55,417 bases of DNA, taken from a bacterium. GTDB taxonomy: Bacteria; Patescibacteriota; Minisyncoccia; Moranbacterales; UBA2206. Under the pieces are notes generated by a model. That model worked only from the letters and a program-made list of their open reading frames with translations, searched no databases and was not told where the DNA came from. How positions within the stretch are numbered: position 1 is the first letter of the stretch; the number at the start of each line of letters is the position of its first letter. Location of the stretch: positions 1-55,417 of the forward strand of contig JAJYKZ010000003.1 in the NCBI GenBank assembly GCA_021788105.1, written 5' to 3'. Below, piece after piece: positions 12,365-29,906 of this stretch. The position numbers and the translations under genes are program-made.

Positions 12365-12402
12365 AGCTTCGCAAAAAATAATTATTATGGTATAATTTTA
12401 GC

Positions 12403-13386
12403 ATGAAAATAAAAAACGTAAAAACATCCTTGCTCATACTTTCCGGCTTGATTATTTTAAGTTTCGGTTTTTTTGTTTACGCCCAGGATAATTCCGTCGG
12501 GACTAATATTTTTGACAGTACTGGACAAGACGGAGCCGCAACAAGCTCAAACAATCTTTCATCACTGCTAAACTCTTCTGATTTATCCGCAACTCCTTCC
12601 GATGCTTCGAATGGAACAACCGATTCCAATAACCTAACTCAGCAAGCAGCCCAGCAGATTGTCGGCTTGATTAATGGCTCTGAAAATTCTTCCGATTCCA
12701 GCAATTCCGGAATAACAATGGATCAGATCCAAGCCCTAGTGGACAGTTCAACAGTTAATTCACAAACCATCAACCTGCCTCAAATTTCCAAAAGCGATAT
12801 CAAAATTAAAAAGCAAGATTATGCCGGAACTGCCGCTGAAATACAGAAAAAAAAGCAAGACGATTTTGACAACTATATTGTCGCTATGTCCTATATTATA
12901 GCCAGCAATTCTCCGACACCGATCACTTCAAACGTTTCGTTGACCGATTTAGCCACGACTATTTTCAATAAAGTTACTTTGGCACTGACTACTCGCAGCG
13001 AAACGCCCCTGGAAGATTTGAGTGTGAGCGCGCAAAAATCACTCGATCAAATGAAAGATATTGAAGTGCCTGAAGATTTGGTTGATGTTCACATCAAAGG
13101 AATGGAACTTATGGAATATGCCATCCAAATTAAAAATTACCTGAATCCGACATCTTCCGATCCGCTTGCCGACATTACCAACCTGTCCAAATTGGAAGGA
13201 TTGGTTTCTGCGGCTTCCGATTTTTATTCCCAAGCGGAAACCAAATTTTCCCAATATAACATGGATGAAGGTGCCATACAAAGCAAATTAAACAGTTTGG
13301 GAATTTCCATCCCAGTCGTCCCAGATTCATCCGCCGCCGACAACACAAATACAAATTCTACAAGTTCAAATGCTCAAGCTCAATAA
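12403..13386 (+). CDS. Secreted or membrane-anchored hypothetical protein
   Basis: N-terminal hydrophobic signal ending VYAQ; S/N-rich linker; helical C-terminal region. Confidence 0.8.
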   Translation: MKIKNVKTSLLILSGLIILSFGFFVYAQDNSVGTNIFDSTGQDGAATSSNNLSSLLNSSDLSATPSDASNGTTDSNNLTQQAAQQIVGLINGSENSSDSSNSGITMDQIQALVDSSTVNSQTINLPQISKSDIKIKKQDYAGTAAEIQKKKQDDFDNYIVAMSYIIASNSPTPITSNVSLTDLATTIFNKVTLALTTRSETPLEDLSVSAQKSLDQMKDIEVPEDLVDVHIKGMELMEYAIQIKNYLNPTSSDPLADITNLSKLEGLVSAASDFYSQAETKFSQYNMDEGAIQSKLNSLGISIPVVPDSSAADNTNTNSTSSNAQAQ

Positions 13387-14404
13387 AAAAATTTCAACAA
13401 TCTTGGCGATATTTTTGATTATTGCCACTTTTTCATTTTTTCACATTCCGAAATCCGAGGCAGCTTGGATACCGGGAATCGATCCGATCATTAGCGAGAC
13501 ACTAAAGGACATTCATGACCAAATAAACGGAGTGATTATGGGTGCCGCTAAGCAAGCCGCCCTGTCTGCTCTAAATATGCAGATAAGCATTCTCATTGGA
13601 GGCGGGAAGGGTGGTGGATCATTAATAATAAGCGACTATAACGACTATTTGTTCAAACAGCCTGAAGCTAAGGCCAATGCTTTTTTAAACGATTACCTCA
13701 GTCAAACTACTGCCGGCCGAGGTTCGGCATCTTACATACCCAACAATGAGGGTTTTGGAAATAATGCTGTTGCTGAAGATATGATGCAAAACAATCCCTC
13801 TTACGCCAGCCTGGTCAACACCGCACAAGCCGCCGGCATCAATCTGAATATAAACAGCATGGCTGGAAATTATATGCAAAAGCTTGTCAACTCTGCAAAG
13901 GCCAGCATCCTGCCCCCGTCTTCCGCTCCTCAGGTGACTTACACCGGCGATCCATCCCAAATGTTTGCTTCGGGAAATTTTCGAAATATGAGCCTCTACC
14001 TTTCCGGAGTCAATAATCCTTGGGCTTTTAATTTAAACGCTCAGCAAGCCTATCAAAATAATTTGCAGCAACAACAAACAATCGCCGACACGCAGGCGAA
14101 AATCGGCCAGGGATATGCCAGCAAAACCGCTTCAAACGGACAAGTGATCACTCCCGGATCAACCATTAAAGACTTGGAATCGGGTATTAACGATCTTCCA
14201 AATAAACTTATCGCTCAAGCAAATAGTTTGCCGGAAATCTTAACGGCTTTTGTTGGAAAGATGGTCGCTCAAACCATAACCCAGGGCATCGGAAATATTT
14301 CCGCCCAAATAGGGAAAAATGTCATCAATGTCAAAGCTCAAGCAACACAGCAACTAAATTCAGAAGTTCAACAAATGGGTCCGGCGGCATTGTTCAAACA
14401 TTGA
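13370..14404 (+). CDS. Secreted hypothetical protein, probably part of the T4SS-like locus
   Basis: Signal peptide ending SEAA; Q/N-rich helical body; overlaps the upstream stop. Confidence 0.8.
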   Translation: MLKLNKKISTILAIFLIIATFSFFHIPKSEAAWIPGIDPIISETLKDIHDQINGVIMGAAKQAALSALNMQISILIGGGKGGGSLIISDYNDYLFKQPEAKANAFLNDYLSQTTAGRGSASYIPNNEGFGNNAVAEDMMQNNPSYASLVNTAQAAGINLNINSMAGNYMQKLVNSAKASILPPSSAPQVTYTGDPSQMFASGNFRNMSLYLSGVNNPWAFNLNAQQAYQNNLQQQQTIADTQAKIGQGYASKTASNGQVITPGSTIKDLESGINDLPNKLIAQANSLPEILTAFVGKMVAQTITQGIGNISAQIGKNVINVKAQATQQLNSEVQQMGPAALFKH

Positions 14405-14458
14405 TTTTAAAAACATCTTTTGCTTGTTTTCCAGGTTCAATTGTAGTAATATCAGATT

Positions 14459-14776
14459 ATGGGCGAAGAAATGAAGAAAAAACTCAAAGAAATAACCGAC
14501 AAGATCGTGCGGGAGCATAAACCGGAAAAGATTATTCTTTTTGGCTCTTATGCATGGGGAAAACCAACAGAAGACAGCGATGTTGATTTGTTTATCGTGA
14601 AAGAAACAGACAATGTACAGAATACGGAAATACAAATAGACAGCTCGATTTTTCCTCGCCCGTTTCCGATCGATATTATTGTTTATCGCCCCAAACAATT
14701 TAAAGAGCGGTTGGAGCGGGGAGATTTTTTTATAAAAGATATTTTTTCCAACGGCAAAGTCATCTATGAATCCTGA
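14459..14776 (+). CDS. Minimal nucleotidyltransferase (MNT), pair 1
   Basis: ILFGSYAWGKPTEDSDVDL (GS...SDxD). Confidence 0.92.
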   Translation: MGEEMKKKLKEITDKIVREHKPEKIILFGSYAWGKPTEDSDVDLFIVKETDNVQNTEIQIDSSIFPRPFPIDIIVYRPKQFKERLERGDFFIKDIFSNGKVIYES

Positions 14777-15155
14777 TTCAAAAAATTATATTGATTGGTT
14801 CAAAAAAGCAGACGAGGATGAACTGAATGCATTATCCATCCTCAAACATCGCGACGGAACGCCCAGCGGCGTATGTTTTTTTTCGCAACAAATAGCTGAA
14901 AAATATCTTAAAGGCCTGCTTGTCTATCGCGATAAACCATTTAGAAAAGTGCATGACCTCATAGACCTGGAAACTCTGCTGAAAGATTTTTATGCCGACA
15001 TTACAAATTTTCATAATGACTTTGCTCTTTTAAATCGTTTTTACATAAAGACTCGCTACCCGGGTGATTTTCCGGAATTTTCCTGGCAAGACGCGGAAAA
15101 TGCGTACGAAGCAGCAAAAGGAATCAAGCAGTTTGTTTTGTCGAAAATAAAATAA
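14766..15155 (+). CDS. HEPN domain protein, pair 1
   Basis: WFKKADED, QQIAEKYLKG, KVHDL, TRYPG; 11 nt overlap with MNT. Confidence 0.92.
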   Translation: MNPDSKNYIDWFKKADEDELNALSILKHRDGTPSGVCFFSQQIAEKYLKGLLVYRDKPFRKVHDLIDLETLLKDFYADITNFHNDFALLNRFYIKTRYPGDFPEFSWQDAENAYEAAKGIKQFVLSKIK

Positions 15156-15181
15156 GAAATATTCCTTTATTTTAGCCAAAA
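15138..15181 (+). repeat. Direct repeat copy 1 (end of HEPN plus downstream)
   Basis: 35 nt identical to 15971-16005, 43 of 44 nt over the extended match. Confidence 0.9.
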
Positions 15182-15288
15182 AACCGCCCAGGACTTGACA
15201 CGAAGGCGCTTTTTTACATTTAGCTAAATAATACGGCATTCCGGGATGTTAATTTGATGGTTGAGTAAAATTGTAGTATATTAAAGCC

Positions 15289-15606
15289 ATGGGAAAATAC
15301 GAAGCTAAAATTCCAGAGATAAGGGAAAAAATAATCAGAGAGATCGATCCGGAAAAAATTATTCTTTTCGGTTCTTATGCGTGGGGAAAACCGACTGAAG
15401 ACAGCGACGTTGATTTGTTTATAATCAAAAATTCCAATGAGCCGCGCAGAGTTAGGCAGGTTTCACTCCGAAAAAAGCTTTTTGGAAGCGGCGTACCGAT
15501 GGATTTGCTTGTGTACACTCAAGAAGAATTAAACCGCCGGCTGGAATTAGAAGACTTCTTTTTTGAAAAAATAATTAACAATGGAAAAGTCATATATGCC
15601 AAATAA
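15289..15606 (+). CDS. Minimal nucleotidyltransferase (MNT), pair 2
   Basis: ILFGSYAWGKPTEDSDVDL. Confidence 0.92.
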   Translation: MGKYEAKIPEIREKIIREIDPEKIILFGSYAWGKPTEDSDVDLFIIKNSNEPRRVRQVSLRKKLFGSGVPMDLLVYTQEELNRRLELEDFFFEKIINNGKVIYAK

Positions 15607-15988
15607 AGGGCTTATAAAATTCAAAGAGTGGCAGAAAAAGGCCGATGAAGATTTTCAATCCGGGCACATATTGATTGAACATGAAGGCGCCCCTGCCAAT
15701 ATTGCGTTTCTTGCTCAACAGGGAGCAGAAAAATATTTAAAAGGCTTCCTCGTGTTTCACGACAAAGATTTTGAAAAAACTCACCATCTTGATGAACTTA
15801 TTGCTGAGTGCAAAAAAATTGACAGCTCATTTAAAGATTTTATAGATGAAGCAGCCATTCTTAATGATTACTACATAGAAGCGCGATACCCTGTTGATAT
15901 AAAAGAGGATATTTCTCTTGAAGAAGCCAGGGAGGCCCTTGAAAAAGCGCTTGCGATACGCGATTTTGTGTTGTCGAAAATAAAATAA
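15596..15988 (+). CDS. HEPN domain protein, pair 2
   Basis: WQKKADED, QQGAEKYLKG, KTHHL, ARYP; ATG 15596 gives the same 11 nt overlap as pair 1. Confidence 0.92.
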   Translation: MPNKGLIKFKEWQKKADEDFQSGHILIEHEGAPANIAFLAQQGAEKYLKGFLVFHDKDFEKTHHLDELIAECKKIDSSFKDFIDEAAILNDYYIEARYPVDIKEDISLEEAREALEKALAIRDFVLSKIK

Positions 15989-16014
15989 GAAATATTCCTT
16001 TATTTAAGCCAAAA
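15971..16014 (+). repeat. Direct repeat copy 2
   Basis: ttgtcgaaaataaaataagaaatattcctttattt(a)agccaaaa. Confidence 0.9.
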
Positions 16015-16027
16015 TCCCGCTCAAACC

Positions 16028-16056
16028 TTGACAAACGAGCGATTTTTTGATATGCT
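16028..16056 (+). promoter_or_regulatory. sigma70 promoter for the lipoprotein gene
   Basis: TTGACA, 17 nt spacer, TGa-TATGCT. Confidence 0.7.
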
Positions 16057-16114
16057 GGCAAATCAAGTTTTTTAACAACTAAATTTGGCCAAAGAGCCAA
16101 GGAGGAGGACTCGA

Positions 16115-16546
16115 ATGAAAAAGTTTTTGATATTATTAGCTTTACTGTCTTCGATTGTGATGGTTATCGGATGCTCTTTCGACAAAGGCCCGTCAAATCA
16201 GCAAATAGCTAAAAGCCTGATGACCTACTTTTCAAACGGCGGCCTCCCGGTTTCCTGGGCTGGGAGCTGGCTCGGAGCCACAAAGGTCACGGTCAACCAG
16301 GCATGGGTAGTTGCCAGAGGAAAGTCTCTTAAGGCAATCAACGGCGGCCGCATGCCCGAGGAGTATGCGGGACAATATCAAAACTGCTGGCCAATTAAGT
16401 TAAAAGTGGAAGGTGTAGCGCAATCAAAGCTTTTTTTTAATCAAACGCAAGCGCATCCATTTCTTGGAGAAAAGACCTTCCTATTCTGCAAAGACAGTTT
16501 TGGAAAATGGAGCGCGCAAAGCGCTTCAGGATCGATTCTTAATTGA
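16115..16546 (+). CDS. Predicted lipoprotein
   Basis: ggaggagg RBS; MKKFLILLALLSSIVMVIGC lipobox-like signal. Confidence 0.8.
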   Translation: MKKFLILLALLSSIVMVIGCSFDKGPSNQQIAKSLMTYFSNGGLPVSWAGSWLGATKVTVNQAWVVARGKSLKAINGGRMPEEYAGQYQNCWPIKLKVEGVAQSKLFFNQTQAHPFLGEKTFLFCKDSFGKWSAQSASGSILN

Positions 16547-16561
16547 TTTGAAAGCAAAATC

Positions 16562-16596
16562 GGTCCCGCTTGGGAAAACAAGCGGGACCTTTTTAT
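16562..16596 (+). terminator. Intrinsic terminator
   Basis: ggtcccgcttg-ggaaaa-caagcgggacc, perfect 11 bp stem followed by Ts. Confidence 0.85.
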
Positions 16597-16682
16597 TTTG
16601 AAATATATTCAAAAGTTTTGCTGTTCTTAAAAATAACTTTTTGTGTTATAATTCAAGCAAGAAAAAATAATAAAAACAGAAA

Positions 16683-18944
16683 TTGAAACGTATTAAGAAA
16701 AATAAATCTTTCAATTTATTTTTAGCAATTATATTTATTATAATTGCAAGTTTTTTGTTTTTAAAAAATGATGCTCGTGCCGCAACTCCATGTACATTTC
16801 AAGATACAAACCCGGCAACTGCAAAAAACAATACTTGCGTATGCACACTTTCATCAAATAATCCGGCGCCGACTGGAAATAGCTGCGAAGTAGCCTCAGT
16901 GGCAAGTGCAGCAGCCTGCCAAGACATGGCAAACCAAGGAACAGCAACCAGCCCGACATATTCTAGCTGCCAATTTTTCTCCAACGGATCATTTGGACCA
17001 GCACTTACAAGCAAGTTTGTTGATGTAAGTAAACAATCAGGAGTATTCCAACATCCAGCAAGCGCGCTTGTTGGTGCTCCAACAGCATCAATTATGAATC
17101 CAGCAAACTGGGTAGAAACAGCCATAATCTGGATCCTTGATGCCATCCTAAGCTTCATGGGAATGCTAGTCTCATTAGCAGCCACTCTCTTTGCTTGGGT
17201 AATTTATCCCGGCAACATAAATGCCATTTACAATAACCCGACTATTTACTCTATCTGGGGAACTGTGAGAGATTTTTTAAATATTGCTTTTATTTTAGTT
17301 CTTCTTTTTTCCGCCTTCTCAACCGTTTTTCAAGTTGAGAAATACAGTTATAAAAAAATTCTTCTCACCTTGATAATTATGGCACTGCTGGTTAATTTTA
17401 GTTTCCCAATTGCCAGATTTTTCATTGATGTTTCGAATGTTTTGATGTATACAATTCTTAATGCCACTTTTCCCAACATGCCTAGCGATCCCTCTGGGGG
17501 TTCTTATCTTTTCTCACAATTCGCAGGCACTGGACAATTTGCAGCAATTTTAAAACCAGATAATGCCTCTATCACAACTTTAATCGCATCAATTATTTTT
17601 GCCTTTCTTTTGGGCGTGACATTTCTAACTATGGCAATCCTATTTGCTATTAGGTTGGTTGCATTAGCTATAATAATAATTTTTTCACCGATTGCCTTTG
17701 TTGGAGAAATTATATCTTTCGGACAATCATTCGCCAGTAAATGGTGGAACTATCTTTTTAAATACTCATTCTTTGCTCCAATTATGGTATTCATGTTGTA
17801 TGTAGCCACAAAAATGCTAGCAGCAGCAAATCAATTAGGGGCTGTACAAATGCAAAATATAGCCAATAGCCAATCAGTTAATGGAAACTATTTGGGCAAT
17901 ATGGCGTTCTTTGCTATTCCAATTATAATTCTTTGGATGGGCATGGGCATTGCCAGTTCTTTCAGCATCGCCGGCGCCAACGCCGCGCAAAAGTGGGCGA
18001 CAAAAGGGATGAAATTTGCAAGCACAGCGCCAGGCAAAGCTGGCCGGTGGGGAGTAAAGAAGGGTGCCAAGAAAATTGATCGCGACTACATCGGTGTACG
18101 AGGAGCTATAAAAGCATGGAAAGACAGATCGGCTGAAGTCGACACAGACAAAGTTGGCGAACAAGCAGCCCTATCAAGAGATTTTCTTGGCCGCATTTTT
18201 GACAAAGGAAAAAGAGATCCCAAATTCTATCAAAAAGTAGAGAATGCTAATAAAATTGCAAAATATAAAAAGGAGCAGGATCTTTTTTCCACAACAGAGG
18301 AGGAAATACTTGGAGCTATGAATAAATTAGATGGAAAGACGGACAAAGAATCCGGCCAGAGAACACAAGCCTTTCTTCAAACTTTAGCTGGAAATAAAGA
18401 TCTTAATGAGTTTGCAAAAAGTAAAACTGGCGAATTTGATCCATACACAGCTAAAGAGGCTCTTTATAAAAGACTTAAATCAAGCCTAAACGAAACCGAA
18501 ACCGTTGACGCACTCCATGACCTTGAAAATATAAACCTTGCAAACGGCGTTTATTCTATGTTTGGATTAACTCATGTTTTAACATCGGCAGATGTTGCAA
18601 TGGATCCTTCTAGAGGCTCCGCTGGTCAGCGAGTGAAGAGCACATCCGCTGAGCAAAAAGCTGCCGCTATTGCAAAAATGAAGCAAGTTGATTATCAAAA
18701 GTTTGTGATCAACTTTCATCGCGACTCAGCCATAACCGAGGATGCTAAGGGCAATACGACCGGGCTTTCTGATATTGGAATGGATTCACTGAAATTTATA
18801 GAAAGCCAGGGAGCTAAGTATGCCGATAGAATGCGAGGGGAAAATAAAGCAGAATTGCTTAAAGCTATCCAGGAACATTCCAAAAAGGATAGTGGAGTGT
18901 TTGAAGCGAGTATTCCGAAATTAGTAGCTGAATTAAAAAAATAA
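16683..18944 (+). CDS. virB6: VirB6/TrbL-like polytopic membrane protein with Cys-rich N-terminal domain and long cytoplasmic tail
   Basis: WGTVRDFLNIAFILVLL, LLVNFSFPIARFFID, IRLVAL...IFSPIAF, WW.YLFKYSFFAP; TTG start. Confidence 0.75.
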   Translation: MKRIKKNKSFNLFLAIIFIIIASFLFLKNDARAATPCTFQDTNPATAKNNTCVCTLSSNNPAPTGNSCEVASVASAAACQDMANQGTATSPTYSSCQFFSNGSFGPALTSKFVDVSKQSGVFQHPASALVGAPTASIMNPANWVETAIIWILDAILSFMGMLVSLAATLFAWVIYPGNINAIYNNPTIYSIWGTVRDFLNIAFILVLLFSAFSTVFQVEKYSYKKILLTLIIMALLVNFSFPIARFFIDVSNVLMYTILNATFPNMPSDPSGGSYLFSQFAGTGQFAAILKPDNASITTLIASIIFAFLLGVTFLTMAILFAIRLVALAIIIIFSPIAFVGEIISFGQSFASKWWNYLFKYSFFAPIMVFMLYVATKMLAAANQLGAVQMQNIANSQSVNGNYLGNMAFFAIPIIILWMGMGIASSFSIAGANAAQKWATKGMKFASTAPGKAGRWGVKKGAKKIDRDYIGVRGAIKAWKDRSAEVDTDKVGEQAALSRDFLGRIFDKGKRDPKFYQKVENANKIAKYKKEQDLFSTTEEEILGAMNKLDGKTDKESGQRTQAFLQTLAGNKDLNEFAKSKTGEFDPYTAKEALYKRLKSSLNETETVDALHDLENINLANGVYSMFGLTHVLTSADVAMDPSRGSAGQRVKSTSAEQKAAAIAKMKQVDYQKFVINFHRDSAITEDAKGNTTGLSDIGMDSLKFIESQGAKYADRMRGENKAELLKAIQEHSKKDSGVFEASIPKLVAELKK

Positions 18945-19007
18945 CCACGAACATAACAGATGAAACGTAAGAAAATTATTCTGAGAAAATTTTAAATAAA
19001 AAAATAA

Positions 19008-20174
19008 ATGTTTAATCCAAGATTAGAAGAAAAAATTGAAAATTTTTCCAATCTTTCCAATCAAGAGTGTGCTTTGATAATCAAAGACAACTTTCTAGAA
19101 GCATTGGAAAGCGACAATTATATTGACTGGGATATCGTTACTAAATTTATAAATACGCCTTACGCGGATCGTGAATTATTATGTAAACTTTTTAATTCTG
19201 CCATCAAACAAAATAGCCAAAAAATTGGAAACTTTAAAATCAGCGACTGGATTAGAAAATATCAAGATCAATATCTTGGAAAAGAAAGAAATCCCAACAC
19301 ATTTTTTGAATATACCAACAATAATCCGGAAATAAAAAAATTATCCAAACACGATCGATTGTTGATAGCTAGAATTTTAAGAATTTATGACTATTTATTA
19401 GTTATTCCAATTGTCGATCTCGAAGGGCCCGTGGAAAGCATTCTGCGATTTGCAATGCGTTCTGAACCTACGCAAGAAAAAAGACCGCTCAATTCGATTG
19501 CAACAGAAAATAGAATTCAACGAAAAATACCACTGGTTAAGTTGCTGTTTGATTCCGCCCTTCAGCAGCTTCCTGAACTCGGCGAGCAGTTGATTACTTC
19601 CGAAAGAATTTCTCTTAAAAATTTCCCCGAACCGGTGCGGCCGTCGATCAAAAACTGGATTGCTGATTACACATTCTCTCTGGGCGGATTTGACGCCCAG
19701 CACAGCACGATCGCCCGCGGCAATTACCTTTTCCACGGCGACAACACTATGCATCTTTCTTCGGACGAGCGGGAAAAACTCTCCTACATCTTGAAAGCCT
19801 ACGATGAAAATTCGGAAGTTACAATCAACAAAGAAACAAAGCAAATAATATTTCCTGAAATTCGCCAACAATCGGGTGATAAAATTTCAAATTCTAAATT
19901 TCAAATTTCAAGTCAAACTCAAAGATCAAATGATCAAATTTCAAGGCCATCGTCTCAAGAAATTAACCCGTCGGCAACGCCGCAAATATCACAAAAATCA
20001 AATCCGGAAAACATGCCTGGCAACATAAATTCCATAAAATTTTCCTATCCGCAAAAATTGCCGTACGAAAATAACAATCCGTACGTGATTAAGCCAGTCT
20101 ATCCAAATGAACAAAAACCGGAACAATCAAAAACGAAACCATTGCCAAAAAACGTGGTTAATCTCAAAGAATAA
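19008..20174 (+). CDS. Hypothetical cytoplasmic protein in the T4SS-like locus
   Basis: Long ORF; block PSIKNWIADY...RGNYLF; heptamer repeat insert near the C-terminus. Confidence 0.8.
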   Translation: MFNPRLEEKIENFSNLSNQECALIIKDNFLEALESDNYIDWDIVTKFINTPYADRELLCKLFNSAIKQNSQKIGNFKISDWIRKYQDQYLGKERNPNTFFEYTNNNPEIKKLSKHDRLLIARILRIYDYLLVIPIVDLEGPVESILRFAMRSEPTQEKRPLNSIATENRIQRKIPLVKLLFDSALQQLPELGEQLITSERISLKNFPEPVRPSIKNWIADYTFSLGGFDAQHSTIARGNYLFHGDNTMHLSSDEREKLSYILKAYDENSEVTINKETKQIIFPEIRQQSGDKISNSKFQISSQTQRSNDQISRPSSQEINPSATPQISQKSNPENMPGNINSIKFSYPQKLPYENNNPYVIKPVYPNEQKPEQSKTKPLPKNVVNLKE

Positions 20175-20176
20175 TT

Positions 20177-20215
20177 TTAGGAGCTAAGCTCCTTGGAAAG
20201 GAGCTTAGCTCCTAA
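20177..20215. repeat. Perfect 17 bp inverted repeat made of two AGGAGCT(A/T)AGCTCCT units
   Basis: ttaggagctaagctcct-tggaa-aggagcttagctcctaa. Confidence 0.85.
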
Positions 20216-20223
20216 AGAATGCT

Positions 20224-20631: not shown

Positions 20632-20732
20632 ACCACTGATTACCACTGACTTCACTTGATTTCACATGAATTTTAAAATTTAAAAACCACAATCACGTGT
20701 ATTCAGAAAAATCACGTGCTAATCATGTGGTT
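20631..20732. repeat. ~100 bp imperfect inverted-repeat element with 10 nt periodic arms
   Basis: aaccactgattaccactgact... / ...atcacgtgctaatcatgtggtt; central ttttaaa-a-tttaaaa. Confidence 0.6.
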
Positions 20733-20739
20733 CTGACAT

Positions 20740-21423: not shown

Positions 21424-21473
21424 AAATATTTTCAAAAAATTAGTTTTTGAATTTCTGAAAATTTGCAAAATTT

Positions 21474-23333
21474 ATGTTTGATTTTTTAAACAAAAACAAA
21501 ACTGCCAAGCCGGCTCAGCCAGCCGCCGCCAAACCAATTTCCATTCCAAAAGAAGAACGGGATGAAATTTTGCAAGCGGAAAAATATTATCAGGAAGGAT
21601 TGGCCAAGCTTCACGACCTGATCGCTCCGGCCGCCATAAAAGTTACGCCGCGCTACATTCGGGTCGGGGAAACGCTCGCCCAAACGCTGTTTGTCATAAC
21701 TTATCCGCGCTACCTCCAAAGCAACTGGTTTTCGCCGATCATCAACATCGACCTGCCGATTAATATTGCTATGTTCGTCCATCCGATCGAGACTTACGAA
21801 GTGCTGAAAAATTTGAAAAAAAGCGCCACCCAAGTCCAGTCCCAAATCCATATGTCCGAAGAAAAAGGAATGATCCGCGATCCCTCTCTGGAAACCGCGA
21901 TGCAGGACATCGAAGATTTGCGCGACAAGCTCCAGCAGGGAACGGAAAAATTTTTCCGCTACGGTTTGTACATAACGATTTTTGCCAATGACGAAAAGGA
22001 ATTGGAGAAAGCCTCCACGTCGATCGTTTCGATTTTGGAAGCCCAGTTGATTTACGCCAAGCCTTCCATTTTCAAAACCGAACAAGGATTCAATTCCACG
22101 ATTCCTTTGGCCAACGACGAGCTGGATGTCGGCACCAGCATGAACTCCGCGCCGCTTTCCACGACTTTTCCATTCGTCTCTTCAACGCTTTCCAATGATG
22201 AAGGAATTTTGTACGGCATCAACCGCCATAACAACAGCTTGATTATTTTCGACCGCTTCAAAATGGAAAACGGCAATATGGTGGTTTTCGCCAAATCCGG
22301 CGCCGGAAAAAGTTACACTGTCAAACTGGAAGTTCTGCGTTCTCTTATGGTTGGAACATCGGTCGTCATTATCGATCCGGAAAATGAATACAAGCATCTC
22401 TGCGAAACAGTCGGCGGGACTTTCATTAAAATTTCCCTTAATTCTTCCAATCACCTGAACCCGTTCGATTTGCCGAAAGTCATTGAAGACGAGGATCCGG
22501 AAGATATTTTGCGAAACAATATTGCAAACTTGATTGGCTTGCTTCATTTGATGCTGGGCGCCATCACGCCTGAAGAAGATTCCATTTTGGATCGCGCCAT
22601 CCACGAAACTTACGCGATGCGTGATATTACCAAAGACACGGATTTCAACGCCTTAAGCAAAGATTCTTTCCCGACGATGATTGATCTCTACCACGTCCTG
22701 AAAAACATGGAAGGCGGGGAAGATTTGGCAACCCGCCTGGAAAAATACACGGTGGGTGTTTTTGCCGGATTTTTGAACAATTCTACCAACATCAACATTG
22801 AAAATTCTCTTGTTGTTTTTAATATCCGCGATATGGAAGAAGAATTGCGGCCGATTGCCATGTACACTGTGCTTCAATTTATTTGGAATGAAATGAGAAC
22901 CAACATGAAAAAAAGGCTGGTTCTTGTTGATGAAGCCTGGGTCATGATGAAGTCCGATGACGCCGCTTCATTCCTTTTTGGAATTGCAAAACGCTGCCGA
23001 AAATATTATACTGGACTTACAACCATCACTCAGGATGTCAATGATTTCCTCTCTTCGAAATACGGCAAGCCGATCGTTACCAACTCATCCATCCAGCTTC
23101 TTTTGAAACAGTCGCCGGCCGCCGTTGATATGCTGGCTGAAACGTTCTATCTGACCGATCAGGAAAAATTTTTGCTCCTGGAAAGCAATGTCGGAGAAGG
23201 AATTTTCTTTGCCGGCACCAAGCACGTGGCCATTAAAGTTATCGCCTCCTACAGCGAAGATCAGATCATCACAACCGATCCGGCCCAGCTTTTGGAAATC
23301 GAACAAGCCAAAAGAGAATTCAGCGAAGAATAA
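21474..23333 (+). CDS. virB4: VirB4-like ATPase (FtsK-HerA superfamily)
   Basis: Walker A FAKSGAGKS, IIDPENEY, Walker B LVLVDEAW, RCRKY...TITQDVNDF. Confidence 0.93.
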   Translation: MFDFLNKNKTAKPAQPAAAKPISIPKEERDEILQAEKYYQEGLAKLHDLIAPAAIKVTPRYIRVGETLAQTLFVITYPRYLQSNWFSPIINIDLPINIAMFVHPIETYEVLKNLKKSATQVQSQIHMSEEKGMIRDPSLETAMQDIEDLRDKLQQGTEKFFRYGLYITIFANDEKELEKASTSIVSILEAQLIYAKPSIFKTEQGFNSTIPLANDELDVGTSMNSAPLSTTFPFVSSTLSNDEGILYGINRHNNSLIIFDRFKMENGNMVVFAKSGAGKSYTVKLEVLRSLMVGTSVVIIDPENEYKHLCETVGGTFIKISLNSSNHLNPFDLPKVIEDEDPEDILRNNIANLIGLLHLMLGAITPEEDSILDRAIHETYAMRDITKDTDFNALSKDSFPTMIDLYHVLKNMEGGEDLATRLEKYTVGVFAGFLNNSTNINIENSLVVFNIRDMEEELRPIAMYTVLQFIWNEMRTNMKKRLVLVDEAWVMMKSDDAASFLFGIAKRCRKYYTGLTTITQDVNDFLSSKYGKPIVTNSSIQLLLKQSPAAVDMLAETFYLTDQEKFLLLESNVGEGIFFAGTKHVAIKVIASYSEDQIITTDPAQLLEIEQAKREFSEE

Positions 23334-23360
23334 TTTTAGATATATTTTTGAGATATTTTT

Positions 23361-23846
23361 ATGGAGGCGACTTACGAACAACTCCAGCACCAAGCAAGGC
23401 TAAACCAAGCCAGAAGCACTGCCAGAGTTTACGCCAATTCTGCGGCAATCGCAAAAAAATCAGCCAAAAAAGCTCCGCTTACGAATTATATTGAACTAAT
23501 AACAGACTGGGCTTTCGTTCCGGCAACAATGCTGGCTATTTTGGAAGATATTTTGGATCTGGTTGGAATTGGAGAAATTCCGGGATTTTCTCTCATCTCT
23601 TCAAGCACCACCGGCTTCGCCCTAAATTTAGCAGGCTCGCCAGATTTAGTTAATATAAAAACAAACAAACAGGATAGGATGGGTCTTTTTACAAATACGA
23701 AAACTGAAGGCCTGGGACCAATTGGAAAAATTTTAATTTTAATTGCTTCCGCAATAATAGAAATGTTTGGGATTCCCGATGAGACCGCCACCGCTGTCTA
23801 TTTGTTTTATTCCGTTTTAAAATCCAGGCGAGCCGCTGATCAATAA
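23361..23846 (+). CDS. Hypothetical membrane protein
   Basis: Co-oriented ORF with hydrophobic segments; operonic spacing. Confidence 0.7.
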   Translation: MEATYEQLQHQARLNQARSTARVYANSAAIAKKSAKKAPLTNYIELITDWAFVPATMLAILEDILDLVGIGEIPGFSLISSSTTGFALNLAGSPDLVNIKTNKQDRMGLFTNTKTEGLGPIGKILILIASAIIEMFGIPDETATAVYLFYSVLKSRRAADQ

Positions 23847-23885
23847 AATAGACAGCTATTGCAATTTTTCAGATAAAAATAAAAA

Positions 23886-24548
23886 ATGAAAAAAAATAAT
23901 TATTATCTCCATATTTTTTCCGCATGGAACCGGGAAATCATCACTTCTTTGGTGATTGTTCTTTGTTTGGTTTTGTTTATTTTGTTTCCGGTTGCCGGAG
24001 CGGCCCAAAATTTCACCCGAAGCATATTTTTTCTGGTTGTCGTTCCGATTTTGTACATAAAATTCATTCTTCGCAAAAGCTTGACGGATTTCGGCTTCAG
24101 CTTAAAAAACAAAAAGGAAGGTCTTTACTGGGGAGGCGGAATGCTTTTAGTTTCCTTATTGGCCGCTTTCTTGCTTATAAAATTTACCGGTTTTAAAAAT
24201 AACTATGCCATTCCCGCTTACGCTTTGAATAATTTCTGGCTTTTCCTGGCGTACGAGTTGATTTTTGTAAATATCTTTTTTGTTCTCCAAGAATTTTTCT
24301 TCAAGGGTTTTATCTTATTTTCTTTTTTCGAAAGGGCTGGCTGGTGGTCGGTTGCGATTTCCTCGGGCATTTTCCTTTTGGTTCTGGCATTCACCGGCAG
24401 TTTCGTCTGGCAGCTCGTGCCAATGATTATTTTATCCATCACCGGAAGCATCGTCGCCTACAAAAGCCGCTCCTGGATATATTCATATTTAATGGGGTTG
24501 CTGTTTCTTTTGCTGACTGACGCATATTTAATTTCAATTATAAAATAA
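23886..24548 (+). CDS. CPBP/Abi (CAAX protease-like) membrane protein with degenerate active site
   Basis: DFGFS, QEFFFKG for EExxFRG, SSGIF, KSRSW; catalytic His residues absent. Confidence 0.7.
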   Translation: MKKNNYYLHIFSAWNREIITSLVIVLCLVLFILFPVAGAAQNFTRSIFFLVVVPILYIKFILRKSLTDFGFSLKNKKEGLYWGGGMLLVSLLAAFLLIKFTGFKNNYAIPAYALNNFWLFLAYELIFVNIFFVLQEFFFKGFILFSFFERAGWWSVAISSGIFLLVLAFTGSFVWQLVPMIILSITGSIVAYKSRSWIYSYLMGLLFLLLTDAYLISIIK

Positions 24549-24549
24549 A

Positions 24550-27500
24550 ATGAAGAAATTACTCGTACCCATCCTGATTTTAATAACATCTTTTTCACTG
24601 TCCGCGCCCGCCCTTGCGTTCAGCTATCCCAACCCGTTTGATGCCGCCCAGCAAGGGATGAGCGGAATTATGGGTATGATGGGGCTCAATCAAAATGTCC
24701 TGCAAACCTATTCCCAATCCCTCAATGTGTCCAGCCAAAAAGAAACACCTCCGCAAGTCCTTTTAAATTTTTCTCCCACCAACCCTTCTGACGGGCAGCA
24801 AGTTACCGTCACCGCCCAGCCGGAATATTTCATGAACGACAAATCACAGGAATATTTTACTTGGTATTTGAAGCATAGTTATTGCCACACAGGCGCAGAC
24901 AAAGGAGCCGCCAACTATGATTCGCGCTGCGACTTAAATGATGACGGAACAATTAGTGTTGAAGATTATAAAATAGCCGCCGCCCGAATTTTGGCCGCTA
25001 ACGGATTTGATTGGAACACCGCCCTGGGACAAGACAGCCAGAATTGCAGCGGAAACTCCAGCGCTGACATAAGCTACTGTTCACAGCCGGACAAATATGA
25101 TCACGCCGGCGATGACGAATATTTGGCCGCTTTTGGAGGAGATAATCAGACGGAACCCACTTACGGCTACCATTGTTATGTTCACGATTTCCAGTCCGGC
25201 ATAGATTCTGAAATAAAATGCCAGCAGTTATTTCCGGACTCATATTCAATGGATGCCAATTGGAAAATTAAAGACGATGGGAGTTTGGCCGATTCACACA
25301 ACGGGCTAAGTAAAAATGAGGAAAGATTTTGGCATCTTGATCCTAATAACAAAGACACGGCCGGAACGGGAAATACAAACGTAGCCAACATTATCGGCCT
25401 GGGAGAATTTCAATTCAGCTGGAATTACGAGTCGGGCGATGAAGTCGGAGTGGCAGTGGAAGGAATTTCCATTTCACCAACCAACTACAACGATTCTTCC
25501 TATAAAATAATGTGGGCGCTGCCTAAAAACAATTTCAGCAATTGCATGTCATCAGAAAGCTCCTCCCAAGACCATTTTCCCCAATTTGTTTCTGACTATG
25601 ATTTGGGCAGTGAAATTTCTGACCCATCCGGATTTGAAAAGCAATATCTGCAGCCGGACAATTCAAATGACTATTCCACCGCCCAGCCGGTGACTGCAAC
25701 TTTAAGCAACGGTTACACAGCCACCATAACGAAAAAAATAGTCAACTCTGATTCCAGCGCTTTCGGCCTTACCGGCAAACTGGAAATAACCGCCGTAATA
25801 CAGAAGCCGGCACAAATAAGCGGAATCAATTCAAGTTACTCCTATATTCCCGACTCCTATGTTTTCACCCAGACCTATTCCCTGGGAAGCGATTCTTTTG
25901 GAAATTCTACCTATACAAACGAAGATTCTTCTTACACCGAGGCACACTACACAATATCCGATTCCGACAACTCTGATACTCCGCCAATTAAAACTGAGAC
26001 TCTGACGGCGGCAGAAAATAATGTCGTGTTTACCTCTATTGGCAAAGGAGACACCACAACAACCAAAACTACAAAATATACAGTCAGCGCCAGCTATAAC
26101 CCGGTCGTCACTTCAACCACCAATCCAATAACCTATAAAACGACTCAGCAAACAACGTATAATTATACGCCGTCCGGTTCTACGGTAGATTATACTGATT
26201 TTAATTTTCCCTCAGTTTCGGGAACGGGTACGCTGTCAGCGGCGCCGTATTGGAGCAGCATAACCAGCACCGGCCCTTCGGTGACCACGAGCTCAAATAC
26301 GCCCGCGCCTCCCGAAGACAGTCTTAATAATTGCTTGAAAGATAATATGGTTACCCCGACCGAAGGCGGACAGACTGCCCGCATTGAAGTCGATCTCTCC
26401 GCCATTCCAACTTCTCCCACCAATGATCCCACCAACAGTCCTATCGTCGCTCACAATTCTGCGGAAGAAAGTGGGCCTAATTCCGACGAGTTGGCAATAA
26501 CCTCTTCAGTCCTTAATGTTGATGACCCAAGTTCTTTGAAATACACTTGGGAAGTCTATACTGCGGATGATGCCAACTCAGATTCCTGGATTCCAATTCC
26601 CAAAACAGACTTATCTGAGTTGGGAGCGACCAAGCTTTCGGGAATGGGATTGAATAAAATCCAATTTAAATTGAATTTTCCAAAAGATTTTCTGAAAAAA
26701 TATATCAAAGTGAGACTCACTGCCGAGGAAACTGCCAATGACAGCACTCGCGAGGGTTATGGAGAAGTAGTGGTTCCGGTGTCTTCTTCCGCTGATTCAA
26801 TCCAGGTTTTCAGCACAACCACAACTGAACCGGTCACAAACACAACCGAATCGGGCAACAACATTATCCTAGGACTTGATCCTTCCGGAGAAAGATGCCA
26901 AACCGGCATGGACAAAATCACCTGTCCGGTTGTCAAAGATGAAATTGTCGGACTGAAGCTTGACGACTCCAATCTGAGCAATTTTTCTTGGAGTTTGGAC
27001 GGCACGCCTTTTTCCTATCAGCAAGCCGGTACGCCCGATTATGAAGCTTTTTTTCCAGTTCTGAAAGAAGTGGGCGATCAATACACCGTAAGCGTAACCG
27101 CCACCGACAAAACGACCGGCGATCCGATAACCATAACCAAAAATTTTCAAGTAGATGATCCAAAAATCGGAATAATTTCCACGGACAACAACGCTTCGCC
27201 GGTGCTTTTGGGAAATTATGTCGATCTTAACAAGAAACTCTGGCCAGACTACAGCACCGATCAGTTTCTAGCCCAGCCGGGAAGCAACATTACCCTAAAA
27301 GCAGACTTTGCCAATATTCCCGCTTCATTTCTTTATGGAGGAACTTACACCTGGTTCATCGACAACACACCGATCGTTTCTGGTTCACCCAATGATTTCG
27401 GCGCAACCATAAATTCCGACGGCAGCTTATCATTCCCAGCCAACAAGTCCATTGGAGATGTTTATACGGTTGACATCGGAGCAACCTATAGCCAAGACAA

Positions 27501-27771
27501 CGACACCAAAAAATTGCTTAACCAAAACTGGAACGTCGCCCTTACCGATTTCGCGGAACAGCCGATCGGCGCGGAAATCACTATTCAAATGACAAACACT
27601 CCCGCTCCCGCCGCGTCCGCCATGGGCCCCGGGCGCAAAATCATGGCTTCATTGATTTCCGCTTTTCCGTCATATTTCACCTTTCTGTTCAAAATAGTTT
27701 TAACGACATTATTGTTTCTGGCATCAATCTGGGTTATACTGGCATTAATACCGAGAAAAAATGAAAATTAA
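24550..27771 (+). CDS. Large (1073 aa) surface protein with signal peptide, Ig-like beta-rich domains and C-terminal membrane anchor
   Basis: Signal ending ALA; DLNDDGTISVED Ca-binding-like loop; S/T-rich; C-terminal TM. Confidence 0.85.
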   Translation: MKKLLVPILILITSFSLSAPALAFSYPNPFDAAQQGMSGIMGMMGLNQNVLQTYSQSLNVSSQKETPPQVLLNFSPTNPSDGQQVTVTAQPEYFMNDKSQEYFTWYLKHSYCHTGADKGAANYDSRCDLNDDGTISVEDYKIAAARILAANGFDWNTALGQDSQNCSGNSSADISYCSQPDKYDHAGDDEYLAAFGGDNQTEPTYGYHCYVHDFQSGIDSEIKCQQLFPDSYSMDANWKIKDDGSLADSHNGLSKNEERFWHLDPNNKDTAGTGNTNVANIIGLGEFQFSWNYESGDEVGVAVEGISISPTNYNDSSYKIMWALPKNNFSNCMSSESSSQDHFPQFVSDYDLGSEISDPSGFEKQYLQPDNSNDYSTAQPVTATLSNGYTATITKKIVNSDSSAFGLTGKLEITAVIQKPAQISGINSSYSYIPDSYVFTQTYSLGSDSFGNSTYTNEDSSYTEAHYTISDSDNSDTPPIKTETLTAAENNVVFTSIGKGDTTTTKTTKYTVSASYNPVVTSTTNPITYKTTQQTTYNYTPSGSTVDYTDFNFPSVSGTGTLSAAPYWSSITSTGPSVTTSSNTPAPPEDSLNNCLKDNMVTPTEGGQTARIEVDLSAIPTSPTNDPTNSPIVAHNSAEESGPNSDELAITSSVLNVDDPSSLKYTWEVYTADDANSDSWIPIPKTDLSELGATKLSGMGLNKIQFKLNFPKDFLKKYIKVRLTAEETANDSTREGYGEVVVPVSSSADSIQVFSTTTTEPVTNTTESGNNIILGLDPSGERCQTGMDKITCPVVKDEIVGLKLDDSNLSNFSWSLDGTPFSYQQAGTPDYEAFFPVLKEVGDQYTVSVTATDKTTGDPITITKNFQVDDPKIGIISTDNNASPVLLGNYVDLNKKLWPDYSTDQFLAQPGSNITLKADFANIPASFLYGGTYTWFIDNTPIVSGSPNDFGATINSDGSLSFPANKSIGDVYTVDIGATYSQDNDTKKLLNQNWNVALTDFAEQPIGAEITIQMTNTPAPAASAMGPGRKIMASLISAFPSYFTFLFKIVLTTLLFLASIWVILALIPRKNEN

Positions 27772-28762
27772 ACTTAATAAAAGTTTGAAAATATTCTTTT
27801 TCTTTCTGATTGCTTTTCCGCTGGCGGCCAGGGCTTCTTTTGATTACAAATTAATGGAAGGCATTCCGGGCTTTGCCAATCCCGGAGACAGCATCAATTT
27901 CTACACTTATGTTTCCGATGTGTACAAATTCGGGATTTGGGCAATCGGAATCGCCGCTCTTCTGATGATTGTGGTCGGCGGATATATGTACATTATGTCG
28001 GCCGGCAACAATTCGCAGATGGAAAAAGCCAAAGGCGTGATCACCGACGCCATCATTGGAATAATTATGGTGATGTCTGCTTATGTTCTGCTCTATGAAA
28101 TCAATCCCGATCTAGTTAAGATAAAACCATTTTCAGGCCCGGCGGTGTCGGGAGTGACAGGCACACCAATAACTCCACAAAATTTAGCTGTTGGTTGTTC
28201 TAATTACACACAAGACTTCCAAAATGCTTCGGGTGGAGACAAAAATTTACAATGTCTGCTTGAAGCTATGGCAACTCAAGAAAGTAGTTGTGATCCAAAC
28301 AAAACAAGTCCTGCTAACCCTCCTGCCTGCGGCATTATGCAATTAGAACCTGCCACAGCATCTTTAGTTGCAAATAATTCTGTAGATTGTCAATATTTAA
28401 TTCAACACCCGGCAGACAGCATCACTTGGGCCGCTGATCTTCTCAAAAAATCCATAAATTCCATTCCCACCAATGCTGGATTCTCTTTGGGAACATCTTA
28501 TGATCTCGGCAATGGCACAATACAATATGGTCAATATACTTATGCGATTGGAAATGATGACTTAATTGCTTCTTACAATGCCGGATATGGCGATGGCGTT
28601 TCATCTAGTGGAAAAAAAGCTCCCTTCGCCGTTTCTTCTGATTGTAAAAATCCAGTGACTCCAGCTTGGCAGTGCGATAAAAACTCAGGCGGCTTCAACC
28701 AAACCCAAGACTACGTTACAAAAGTCCAAGCCTATCAAAAAGCTTGTTTAACCAGCAGTTAA
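27761..28762 (+). CDS. CPR-type (VirB2/TrbC-like) pilin fused to an SLT lytic transglycosylase domain
   Basis: Two-TM pilin AALLMIVVGGYMYIMSAGN..KAK..ITDAIIG; SLT motifs AMATQESS, GIMQLEP, ASYNAG, TQDYV. Confidence 0.82.
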   Translation: MKIKLNKSLKIFFFFLIAFPLAARASFDYKLMEGIPGFANPGDSINFYTYVSDVYKFGIWAIGIAALLMIVVGGYMYIMSAGNNSQMEKAKGVITDAIIGIIMVMSAYVLLYEINPDLVKIKPFSGPAVSGVTGTPITPQNLAVGCSNYTQDFQNASGGDKNLQCLLEAMATQESSCDPNKTSPANPPACGIMQLEPATASLVANNSVDCQYLIQHPADSITWAADLLKKSINSIPTNAGFSLGTSYDLGNGTIQYGQYTYAIGNDDLIASYNAGYGDGVSSSGKKAPFAVSSDCKNPVTPAWQCDKNSGGFNQTQDYVTKVQAYQKACLTSS

Positions 28763-28769
28763 TCTATTT

Positions 28770-29906
28770 ATGACTCTCTCCAAAAAAATCTTTTTGACAT
28801 CAACAATTGCCCTGATTGTGCTTTTGCTTTTTTGGGGCATTTATAATTTATCTTTCAAGCGACCGGCGTTGCCGACGCAAACCACTTCTCAACAGTCCAA
28901 ACAGGCGGATGTTTCAGCAGTGCAGAATGCTCCGGAAGTTTCCGCCATTTCCGACGAAGCTGTTCTGGCGCCCACTCTTTCATCCGACAGCCAGCACATC
29001 GAATATTATTCCAAGAAAACCGGAGAAACATATGAAATTAATTTTGACGGAACCGGCAAACAAACCGTTTCTACCGAAGAATTGCCGGGATTGTCCTATG
29101 CCATTTGGTCGCCCGACGATTCGAAAGTCATTCGGGCATTTCCCCAAGGCAGCTACACCAAATTTGTTTTCCATGATTATGCGGCAGGTGATGATATTGC
29201 TTTGGGCAACGGAATTGATTGGATTGCTTGGCTGAATAACAATAAAATAATATACAAATATTACGACCAGGGAACTAAAGAAAATTCCCTAAACATTTCA
29301 AATCCCGACGGATCAAACTGGTTGAAAATAACAGACTTGAAATATTCATCAATGTCCTTGGCTCCGATTCCAAAAACCGGTTTGGTTTCTTTTTGGAACA
29401 GTCCGGATGCCAACACCGCAACAGATTTTGAATCCATTTCGGCCCTGGGAGGAGACGCGACCCCTTTGATTCAGAATTATTTCGGCGCTGATTATTTGTG
29501 GAGCCCGGACGGCACCAATATTTTGATGAGCCATACCGACCAGCAGGGCGGGAACAAAATCACTCTGGCCGTAACAGACTCGCAAGGAAATAACTACAAA
29601 GACTTGGGCGTTGCCACTTTCGTTTCAAAATGCGCTTGGTCGGTGGATGACAAGACCGTTTACTGCGCCGTGCCTGATTCTCTGCCCGATGATGCGACAT
29701 TGCCCAATGACTATTCCGATGGGAAAATAACCACGAGCGATTCTTTTTGGAAAATCAATACTGAAACCGGAGACAAAACAATCATCGCCGGACCCAATCA
29801 GTTGGGCGGAAAATTCGACGCCTCCAATTTATTTTTGAATCTTAATGAAAGTTCGCTGTTTTTCATAAACAATCTTGACGGAAAGCTTTACAAAATAGAC
29901 TTATAA
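28770..29906 (+). CDS. Membrane-anchored TolB/PD40-like beta-propeller protein
   Basis: N-terminal TM; repeats PTLSSDS, WSPDDSK, WSPDGTN, WSVDDKT. Confidence 0.8.
   Translation: MTLSKKIFLTSTIALIVLLLFWGIYNLSFKRPALPTQTTSQQSKQADVSAVQNAPEVSAISDEAVLAPTLSSDSQHIEYYSKKTGETYEINFDGTGKQTVSTEELPGLSYAIWSPDDSKVIRAFPQGSYTKFVFHDYAAGDDIALGNGIDWIAWLNNNKIIYKYYDQGTKENSLNISNPDGSNWLKITDLKYSSMSLAPIPKTGLVSFWNSPDANTATDFESISALGGDATPLIQNYFGADYLWSPDGTNILMSHTDQQGGNKITLAVTDSQGNNYKDLGVATFVSKCAWSVDDKTVYCAVPDSLPDDATLPNDYSDGKITTSDSFWKINTETGDKTIIAGPNQLGGKFDASNLFLNLNESSLFFINNLDGKLYKIDL

Follow-up and report, generated by a model that had tools for sequence, protein, structure and literature searches.

The Patescibacteria's type IV secretion system (T4SS) is one of a handful of machines shown to be indispensable to the epibiotic life of this very large and mostly uncultured group. 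In Southlakia epibionticum the T4SS is essential for epibiotic growth; pilins were noted among its genes, and no relaxase or coupling protein was recognisable (Wang et al. 2023, PMC10633639). Across 3,035 genomes, a survey placed a Patescibacteria clade of VirB4 within the MPF_FATA type, found genes for VirB4, TrsD, PrgI, VirB6 and VirB2, the last in arrays, adjoining dnaA, ksgA and rnpA, and reported that relaxases are nearly absent, being present in 103 of the 3,035 genomes (Quinonero-Coronel et al. 2025, PMC12102498). A 2025 review counts the Patescibacteria T4SS among the T4SS superfamily, where it is listed as new (PMC12857230), and tubular structures seen by cryo-electron microscopy at the parasite-host interface have been suggested to be T4SS pili (bioRxiv 10.64898/2026.06.21.733656). 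Here we investigate a T4SS-like locus at positions 12403-29906 of a stretch of 55,417 nucleotides from a member of the Moranbacterales (assembly GCA_021788105.1, contig JAJYKZ010000003.1), the whole of which is referred to as the window.

We put the probability at roughly 80% that this locus is the core of a Patescibacteria-clade T4SS, a fixed chromosomal organelle of host-dependent bacteria. That it belongs to the known Patescibacteria T4SS and is not a mobile element is very likely. The Patescibacteria-clade T4SS is derived from monoderm conjugation machinery of the MPF_FATA type. The system, its absent conjugation genes and its origin-side position have already been published (Wang et al. 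2023; Quinonero-Coronel et al. 2025), and among its members the locus is unexceptional and well preserved, with a few conserved partners that are still uncharacterised. The copy in the window introduces no new principle; it is a clean, strongly syntenic Moranbacteria example that comes with a list of co-inherited partners.

Genomes and loci compared

The source genome is 921 kb in 40 contigs and is 94% complete; the window is one of these contigs (C40). The open reading frame (ORF) list places 18 ORFs on the + strand between 12.4 and 30.7 kb of the window. At least 560 related stretches were found in species-representative genomes, from which 80 loci with a VirB4 54-81% identical to that of the window were kept. 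These carry Candidate Phyla Radiation (CPR) labels wherever the names are informative, and the closest relatives of the window are labelled Candidatus Moranbacteria/Moraniibacteriota and Parcubacteria. VirB4 and VirD4 were counted in a family sample of 61 genomes, 51 of them of high quality, from 32 genera. Presence counts for accessory genes are restricted to loci whose contig extends far enough, and whole-genome family searches were made in six frames across all 921 kb.

Core genes of the secretion system

The following genes of the locus belong to recognisable T4SS families.

16683-18944, + strand: VirB6/TrbL-like polytopic membrane protein, 753 aa (transmembrane profile; homologues match PF04610)
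20224-20631, + strand: PrgI (VirB3-like), two transmembrane segments (PF12666, 39 bits, cut-off 27)
20740-21423, + strand: TrsD, a separate polypeptide for the VirB4 N-terminal domain, 227 aa (NF041427 at 4e-8)
21474-23333, + strand: VirB4 ATPase, C-terminal two-thirds, MPF_FATA type, CD1110 family (NF045971, PF19044)
27761-28762, + strand: VirB2-type T4SS pilin, with signal peptide and two transmembrane segments, fused to an SLT lytic transglycosylase (PF18895 and PF01464)

The VirB4 ATPase scores 378 bits against the CD1110-family model NF045971, for which the cut-off is 325, and 102 bits against PF19044. Its nucleotide-binding motifs are intact, with AKSGAGKS as Walker A and LVLVDEAW as Walker B. 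Within the family, VirB4 identity reaches 97%. The closest VirB4 proteins outside the CPR are encoded on plasmids, all from monoderms (Embleya, Streptomyces, Pontibacillus, Bacillus and Clostridium), and are 28-36% identical. This gap in identity, 54-97% inside the CPR against at most 36% to the best plasmid proteins, agrees with a probable membership in the Patescibacteria clade.

The remainder of VirB4 is supplied by TrsD, which aligns to positions 92-268 of a VirB4 model, the N-terminal part of about 170 residues. TrsD is present in 79 of the 80 related loci, a median of 11 bp upstream of virB4, and PrgI in 69 of them. The VirB6-like protein has a signal peptide, a Cys-rich exported N-terminal domain, six or seven transmembrane segments and, at the C-terminus, a hydrophilic domain of some 300 aa. 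It has no direct Pfam match, and its family profile finds only chance-level matches among PDB sequences. The label is justified through the family, because three of the 36 aligned homologues match PF04610 TrbL/VirB6 (best 6.7e-10). A VirB6-like gene is present in 34 of the 51 loci that are complete upstream, always on the strand of virB4.

The SLT domain, of a wall-cutting type and carried at the pilin's outer end, would provide a VirB1-like activity. The fused domain varies among the pilin orthologues: SLT in seven, SLT_3 in four, SLT_2 in one and Peptidase_C39_2 in one. Taken together, the core genes are predicted to encode a membrane translocon comprised of the VirB6-like channel protein, PrgI/VirB3 and a two-chain VirB4 made of TrsD and the motor.

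Conservation and inheritance of the locus

VirB4 is single-copy in 57 of the 61 family genomes, in 49 of the 51 high-quality genomes and in 31 of the 32 genera. In about 20 genomes with a VirB4 75-81% identical, the gene order and both flanks are kept: ksgA, UbiA, g12403, g13370, VirB6-like, g19008, PrgI, TrsD, VirB4, small membrane protein, g23886, large surface protein, pilin, propeller, Wzy, Wzy and GT2 (glycosyltransferase family 2), where genes without a family name are called by their first position in the window. With one VirB4 in 57 of 61 genomes and the entire gene order preserved, this is a vertically inherited locus, not a mobile element.

The setting is that of a chromosome. The genes on the upstream side are pnp, lspA, a Mg-chelatase-like gene, an RpfB-like gene, ksgA and a UbiA-family gene, and downstream are two Wzy-like genes, two GT2 genes, a flippase gene, jag, yidC, rnpA, dnaA and dnaN. 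The dnaA gene is about 8 kb downstream of the locus. The cumulative GC skew turns near 39 kb of the window, which puts the end of the locus some 8 kb away from the replication origin. In base composition the locus does not stand out from its surroundings.

Is the locus instead a conjugation or mobilisation apparatus, either a degenerate or domesticated integrative and conjugative element (ICE) or one that serves trans-encoded relaxases by way of distant VirD4-like proteins? The ancestry in monoderm conjugation, seen in the CD1110 family and in the TrsD/PrgI/VirB6 gene order, would suit this, as would the two genes of the type IV coupling protein (T4CP) family found elsewhere in the genome and the relaxases of the 103 surveyed genomes (PMC12102498). 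Set against these, the relaxase families PF03432, PF03389, PF01076, PF02486, PF08751 and PF07514 have no match at E<=0.1 anywhere in the genome, in a search that did not include MOBC, MOBB or novel types. The locus has no integrase, attachment-site (att) repeat or compositional break; nothing convincing was found among flanking att-like direct repeats, the only real repeats being duplicated toxin-antitoxin modules. Matches to tyrosine recombinases are confined to contig C14 and the edge of contig C36 in a genome-wide search that did not cover serine recombinases. The single-copy, near-universal and flank-syntenic distribution is unlike that of mobile elements, and both T4CP-like genes sit among housekeeping genes. 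We consider a conjugative or mobilising role very improbable.

A first-pass annotation of the window had described co-oriented genes between 12403 and 29906, and each of the genes it named lies at the given place on the + strand by the ORF list and profile searches. Its statements that the window has no relaxase, VirD4 or integrase, and that housekeeping genes lie on both sides, agree with the six-frame genome searches, which place no relaxase, VirD4 or tyrosine recombinase on this contig, and with the flanks of ksgA and UbiA upstream and jag, yidC, rnpA, dnaA and dnaN downstream. It proposed a machine for host contact, secretion or uptake in place of a conjugative element, to be doubted if an ICE context or a patchy distribution came to light. 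Neither did: there are no att repeats and no relaxase match, and VirB4 is widespread with synteny that extends into the flanks. The published work on the Patescibacteria T4SS (PMC10633639, PMC12102498) points the same way.

Coupling proteins and pilins outside the locus

The same annotation described the locus as lacking a coupling protein. This is correct for the locus only; the genome does contain two VirD4-family ATPases. The search for VirD4 first gave only sub-threshold matches, and scans of the full ORFs then returned real VirD4-family matches.

C26:34830-36656: VirD4-family ATPase, soluble, 609 aa (PF10412, 51 bits; C-terminal CxxC-x17-CxxC zinc finger)
C9:14722-17211: VirD4-family ATPase with its membrane/N-terminal part fused, 829 aa (PF10412, 40 bits)

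For the C26 ATPase, the N-terminal part with a single transmembrane segment is a separate protein of 418 aa encoded directly upstream, the pair spanning C26:34830-37930. Its neighbours are the housekeeping genes mnmA, alaS, ftsA and mltG. Both ATPases are core genes, present in 60 of the 61 family genomes, and their number fits the survey, which counts some two T4CP homologues in a genome, most of them at a distance from virB4 (PMC12102498).

Pilins are dispersed as well. The genome has 12 matches to PF18895, eleven of them outside the locus. A tandem array of seven pilin genes (C14:13191-18715) is directly upstream of nusA, its pilin modules joined to Cys-rich or low-complexity extra domains, and more pilin matches are on C6 and C9. 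The machine is thus encoded at more than one place in the genome. About 7 kb upstream of the pilin array there is also a gene for a tyrosine recombinase of 316 aa, on the minus strand (C14:5379-6329).

An alternative reading is import. A VirB4/VirB6 channel might bring in host DNA or RNA in the manner of the Ced and ComB systems, feeding a nucleotide-dependent cell, with the two VirD4-like ATPases as translocases. VirB4 matches the DNA-import model CedB (57.7 bits) and a VirD4-like protein matches CedD (40 bits), and the near-universal presence of both VirD4-family ATPases would be in keeping with such a role. A 2026 preprint describes host-RNA feeding by a cultivated relative, the same work in which the tubes at the host interface are suggested to be T4SS pili (bioRxiv 10.64898/2026.06.21.733656), and in ABY1-class genomes the T4SS genes adjoin comF, recG and radA (PMC12102498). 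However, the CedB and CedD scores are far under the curated cut-offs of 700 and 600 bits, which is general family resemblance. The T4CP homologue of Southlakia was not essential though its T4SS was (PMC12102498), and loss of comEC had no effect on viability (PMC12102498, PMC12857230). Nor does the locus encode a recognisable nucleic-acid binder. Nucleic-acid uptake as the purpose of the machine is therefore weighed here as rather unlikely.

Comparison with other type IV secretion systems

How does the locus compare with the nearest described systems? With the Patescibacteria-clade T4SS of Ca. Southlakia epibionticum ML1 (SEML1_0006-0019) it shares VirB4 with a separate TrsD, PrgI/VirB3, VirB6, VirB2-type pilins and, within the cluster, a wall hydrolase. 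Also shared are the lack of a relaxase, the distant T4CP homologues, the dnaA/rnpA/ksgA chromosomal neighbourhood and the near-universal presence. What differs is the Moranbacteria layout, in which the sole pilin of the cluster is fused to SLT and an array of seven pilin genes is on another contig, together with a fixed accessory set and two toxin-antitoxin pairs inserted in the middle of the locus.

The MPF_FATA systems of monoderms that were compared are TrsC-TrsD-TrsE of pGO1/pSK41, CD1110 of C. difficile CTn2, PrgH-PrgI-PrgJ-PrgK-PrgL of pCF10, and pIP501. In common with these are a CD1110-family VirB4 above the cut-off, the TrsD-type split of VirB4, PrgI, a VirB6-like protein, a lytic transglycosylase and the absence of outer-membrane core proteins. 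Unlike them, the locus has no relaxase, origin of transfer (oriT), linked coupling protein, recognisable VirB8-like protein (PrgL/TraM) or PrgB-type adhesin. A VirB2-type pilin is among its proteins, its VirB4 is at most 36% identical to plasmid VirB4s, and it is a fixed chromosomal core set and not part of a plasmid or ICE.

Some monoderm T4SS-like loci do carry pilins, namely the Mycoplasma ICE families Mbov_0395-0397 and a locus on a megaplasmid of Pontibacillus sp. (NZ_CP062975.1). These have a similar order of a pilin-like protein, a large polytopic protein, a PrgI-sized protein, a TrsD-sized protein, VirB4 (35% identity) and a large peptidoglycan hydrolase. They differ in being on ICEs or megaplasmids and in having a pilin that is not fused to the hydrolase, and among their annotated ORFs there is no propeller or CPBP-like gene. 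In Pontibacillus the cluster is at 351-361 kb and includes the pilin-like gene, the VirB4 that is 35% identical to that of the window and a peptidoglycan endopeptidase of 1050 aa. It adjoins a flagellar gene cluster, the record is typed as non-mobilizable, and the annotation shows no relaxase within 14 kb of its virB4.

The Ced system of the Sulfolobales and ComB of Helicobacter are, like this locus, VirB4-family machines without a relaxase; Ced and ComB move nucleic acid inward. The likeness to Ced consists only of the sub-threshold CedB and CedD matches, from a search to which CedA and the ComB-specific parts did not belong.

Several points weigh against reading the locus as the fixed core of a Patescibacteria T4SS. 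No protein of the locus has a Pfam, NCBIfam or PDB-profile match to the bitopic subunit VirB8, although a divergent analogue may be present; in the 2025 survey VirB8 is found in few Patescibacteria only (PMC12102498). Transfer that depends on a coupling protein is possible by means of the two conserved VirD4-family ATPases. Relaxases of the MOBC, MOBB or novel types would have passed unseen, and in a genome that is 94% complete and in 40 contigs a gene that seems absent could sit in a gap. Finally, the putative tie between the accessory genes and the T4SS comes solely from their conserved neighbourhood.

Conserved accessory genes

Interspersed with the core genes are seven that have no T4SS family name.

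12403-13386, + strand: g12403, secreted protein of 327 aa, first gene of the conserved block (signal peptide)
13370-14404, + strand: g13370, secreted protein of 344 aa, predicted to be mostly helical (signal peptide)
19008-20174, + strand: g19008, cytoplasmic protein of 388 aa (alignment, AlphaFold2 model)
23361-23846, + strand: g23361, small membrane protein of 161 aa (transmembrane profile, positional orthologues)
23886-24548, + strand: g23886, polytopic membrane protein of 220 aa, CPBP/Rce1-like (homologues match PF02517)
24550-27771, + strand: surface protein of 1073 aa with signal peptide and C-terminal transmembrane anchor (sequence features)
28770-29906, + strand: beta-propeller (TolB/WD40-like) with N-terminal transmembrane anchor (profile against the PDB)

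Each is present in between 14 of 14 and 18 of 18 loci with sufficient contig reach. The genes at 12403, 13370, 19008 and 23361 had been put forward as candidate subunits or substrates, and this standing is strengthened by orthologues at the same position in related genomes. The accessory set, that is the propeller, the inactive CPBP-like protein, the small membrane protein, the TSP3-family protein and the tail-motif cytoplasmic protein, was not found mentioned in PMC10633639 or PMC12102498. The main text of the survey (PMC12102498) has no mention of propeller, TolB or PD40, and the word 'propeller' is absent from Wang et al. 2023 (PMC10633639).

Of the accessory genes, the propeller is the one with the widest linkage. 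By itself it is a weak match (PD40 at 0.038), and a profile of 37 homologues matches WD40 (2ymu, 2e-14) and TolB (1e-7) propellers in the PDB. It is present in 37 of the 50 loci that are complete downstream.

Among the other membrane and surface proteins, the positional orthologues of g23361 are 154-210 aa, mostly with three hydrophobic segments, and are found directly after virB4 in almost all of the related loci examined. They share a KDILD...G-x-G-S-x-P motif. In the window copy a polar stretch replaces the middle hydrophobic segment, and the motifs EDILD..GIGE.PG and E.FG.PDET are retained; this copy may be degenerating. The next gene, g23886, is present in 18 of 18 loci, and 15 of its 24 homologues match PF02517. 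An active CPBP protease was considered for it and rejected, the conserved His being absent and motif 1 (Glu-Glu-x-x-x-Arg) being degenerate. Without conserved His residues in its family, the protein is probably no protease. The surface protein of 1073 aa has conserved ends and a variable middle, is present in 15 of 15 loci and has no Pfam or other domain match; it is a candidate adhesin.

The first two genes of the block, g12403 and g13370, are each in 17 of 17 loci, counted for g12403 among Moran-type loci. A promoter-like site is located at 12368-12396, upstream of g12403. Its orthologues contain bacterial TSP3 Ca-binding repeats (PF18884 TSP3_bac) followed by a helical C-terminal domain. 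The D-x-D-x-D-G repeats kept by 17 of 17 orthologues have been lost from the window copy, which has low-complexity sequence rich in S, N and T instead. For g13370 there is no Pfam or PDB match, and its AlphaFold2 model, built from an alignment of 18 sequences, has a mean pLDDT of 52, too poor for a fold search. Family profiles of g12403, g13370 and g19008 gave only chance-level matches to PDB sequences.

The family of g19008 is found only in CPR genomes, in 182 database clusters of hypothetical proteins with no Pfam domain. In the AlphaFold2 model, residues 175-285 form an alpha/beta domain of about 110 aa with high confidence (pLDDT about 97), followed by a disordered, fast-evolving linker and two conserved motifs, FSxPQK and the C-terminal N-[VIL]-[VIL]-[ND]-L-[KR]. 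The tail motif, of the N-V-V-N-L-K type, is present in 20 of 29 and in 110 of 120 sequences. A Foldseek search of the model against the PDB gave no match with E<1; the domain sits in a mostly disordered chain, and a search with the domain only might do better. The protein was also considered as a VirB8-like bitopic protein. This was rejected, as its weakly hydrophobic segment at 118-136 is not conserved and is modelled within a soluble helix.

Are these proteins parts of the T4SS, or do they only share its operon? They might belong to envelope biogenesis, the propeller, the 1073-aa protein, the CPBP-like protein and the two secreted proteins being non-T4SS genes in an origin-proximal operon that also holds the T4SS and a Wzy/glycosyltransferase cluster. 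The Moran-type propeller does border Wzy and GT2 genes, the neighbours have no homology to any known T4SS subunit, and most of their families are detected within the family or order only. The position of the propeller argues otherwise. In 39 of 40 loci it is on the strand of virB4 and 4-4500 bp downstream; four Paceibacteria loci have its start 3-6 bp past the virB4 stop codon, and in others it is between pilin genes. Fifteen of the loci that have it lack a nearby Wzy gene. In the window the adjacent-gene junctions from 23333 to 29908 are overlaps or gaps of 1-39 bp. An envelope-biogenesis role for these genes is accordingly a minority possibility.

It is possible, if on balance doubtful, that the co-conserved proteins are lineage-specific T4SS parts that make up for the absence of VirB8, VirB5, adhesin and coupling functions. 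The propeller, anchored in the membrane, could then serve as a scaffold that spans the wall or forms the base of the pilus. The catalytically dead CPBP-like protein would, like the small membrane protein, add a subunit to the translocon, and g19008 could be an adaptor or a substrate that docks on the ATPase through its C-terminal tail. Such partners bear on how the machine spans the monoderm wall and engages the host. Candidates for structural or genetic work are the propeller, the inactive CPBP-like protein, the small membrane protein, the tail-motif cytoplasmic protein and the head-fused pilins.

Proposed activity of the system

In the VirB system of Agrobacterium, pilus formation is independent of the coupling protein. 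For the locus as the core of a Patescibacteria T4SS, assembly of a short pilus or conduit is the best supported activity, because the gene set matches the needs of a VirB4-driven pilus or translocon and because a pilus forms without a coupling protein. On the gene content, there is perhaps an even chance that the main demonstrable activity would be pilus assembly with display of the heads borne by the pilins. VirB4 would pull pilins out of the membrane and drive the building of a short pilus or conduit that passes the cell's own wall. The fused pilin heads, lytic or Cys-rich, and the surface proteins might then touch the host envelope and open it locally. Macromolecules could cross the conduit as a further role, for which protein export and import of host material are roughly equally probable.

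Local insertions and other features

Not everything between 12.4 and 30.7 kb belongs to the conserved block.

14459-15988, + strand: two tandem MNT-HEPN toxin-antitoxin pairs (PF18765/PF01909, PF05168)
16085-16546, + strand: small lipoprotein gene, likely start 16116 (lipobox VIGC)
29908-30657, + strand: class I S-adenosylmethionine methyltransferase, co-oriented, starting two bases past 29906

None of the 80 related loci has a counterpart of the HEPN, lipoprotein or methyltransferase genes, and MNT has a single weak match, to MNT1. In Moran-type relatives the VirB6-like gene comes directly after g13370. By this comparison the MNT-HEPN pairs and the lipoprotein gene, in the stretch 14405-16600, and the methyltransferase gene are local insertions and not T4SS parts. 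The methyltransferase is probably outside the system, because it is absent from all related loci. The description of 12403-29906 as one locus has to be amended for the two MNT-HEPN pairs and the lipoprotein gene inserted within it.

The MNT-HEPN region contains duplicated segments of 84-115 nt. The lipoprotein gene has its own promoter (16028-16056) and terminator (16562-16589). An imperfect direct repeat of 20 nt (80% identity), at 14402-14421 and 16622-16641, flanks the 2.2-kb insertion of toxin-antitoxin and lipoprotein genes; a third copy (95%) is at 24575-24594, inside the gene for the 1073-aa protein, so that the repeat may be due to chance.

The 49-bp gap between g19008 and prgI contains a hairpin (20176-20216) with a perfect 19-bp stem and a 3-nt loop. 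On the + strand no T-tract follows, and because of this it is unlike an intrinsic terminator on that strand.

With the origin near 39 kb, as the GC skew indicates, the + strand operon at 16683-29906 runs toward the origin and is head-on to replication. The genes from Wzy to rnpA beside the locus are co-directional with replication.

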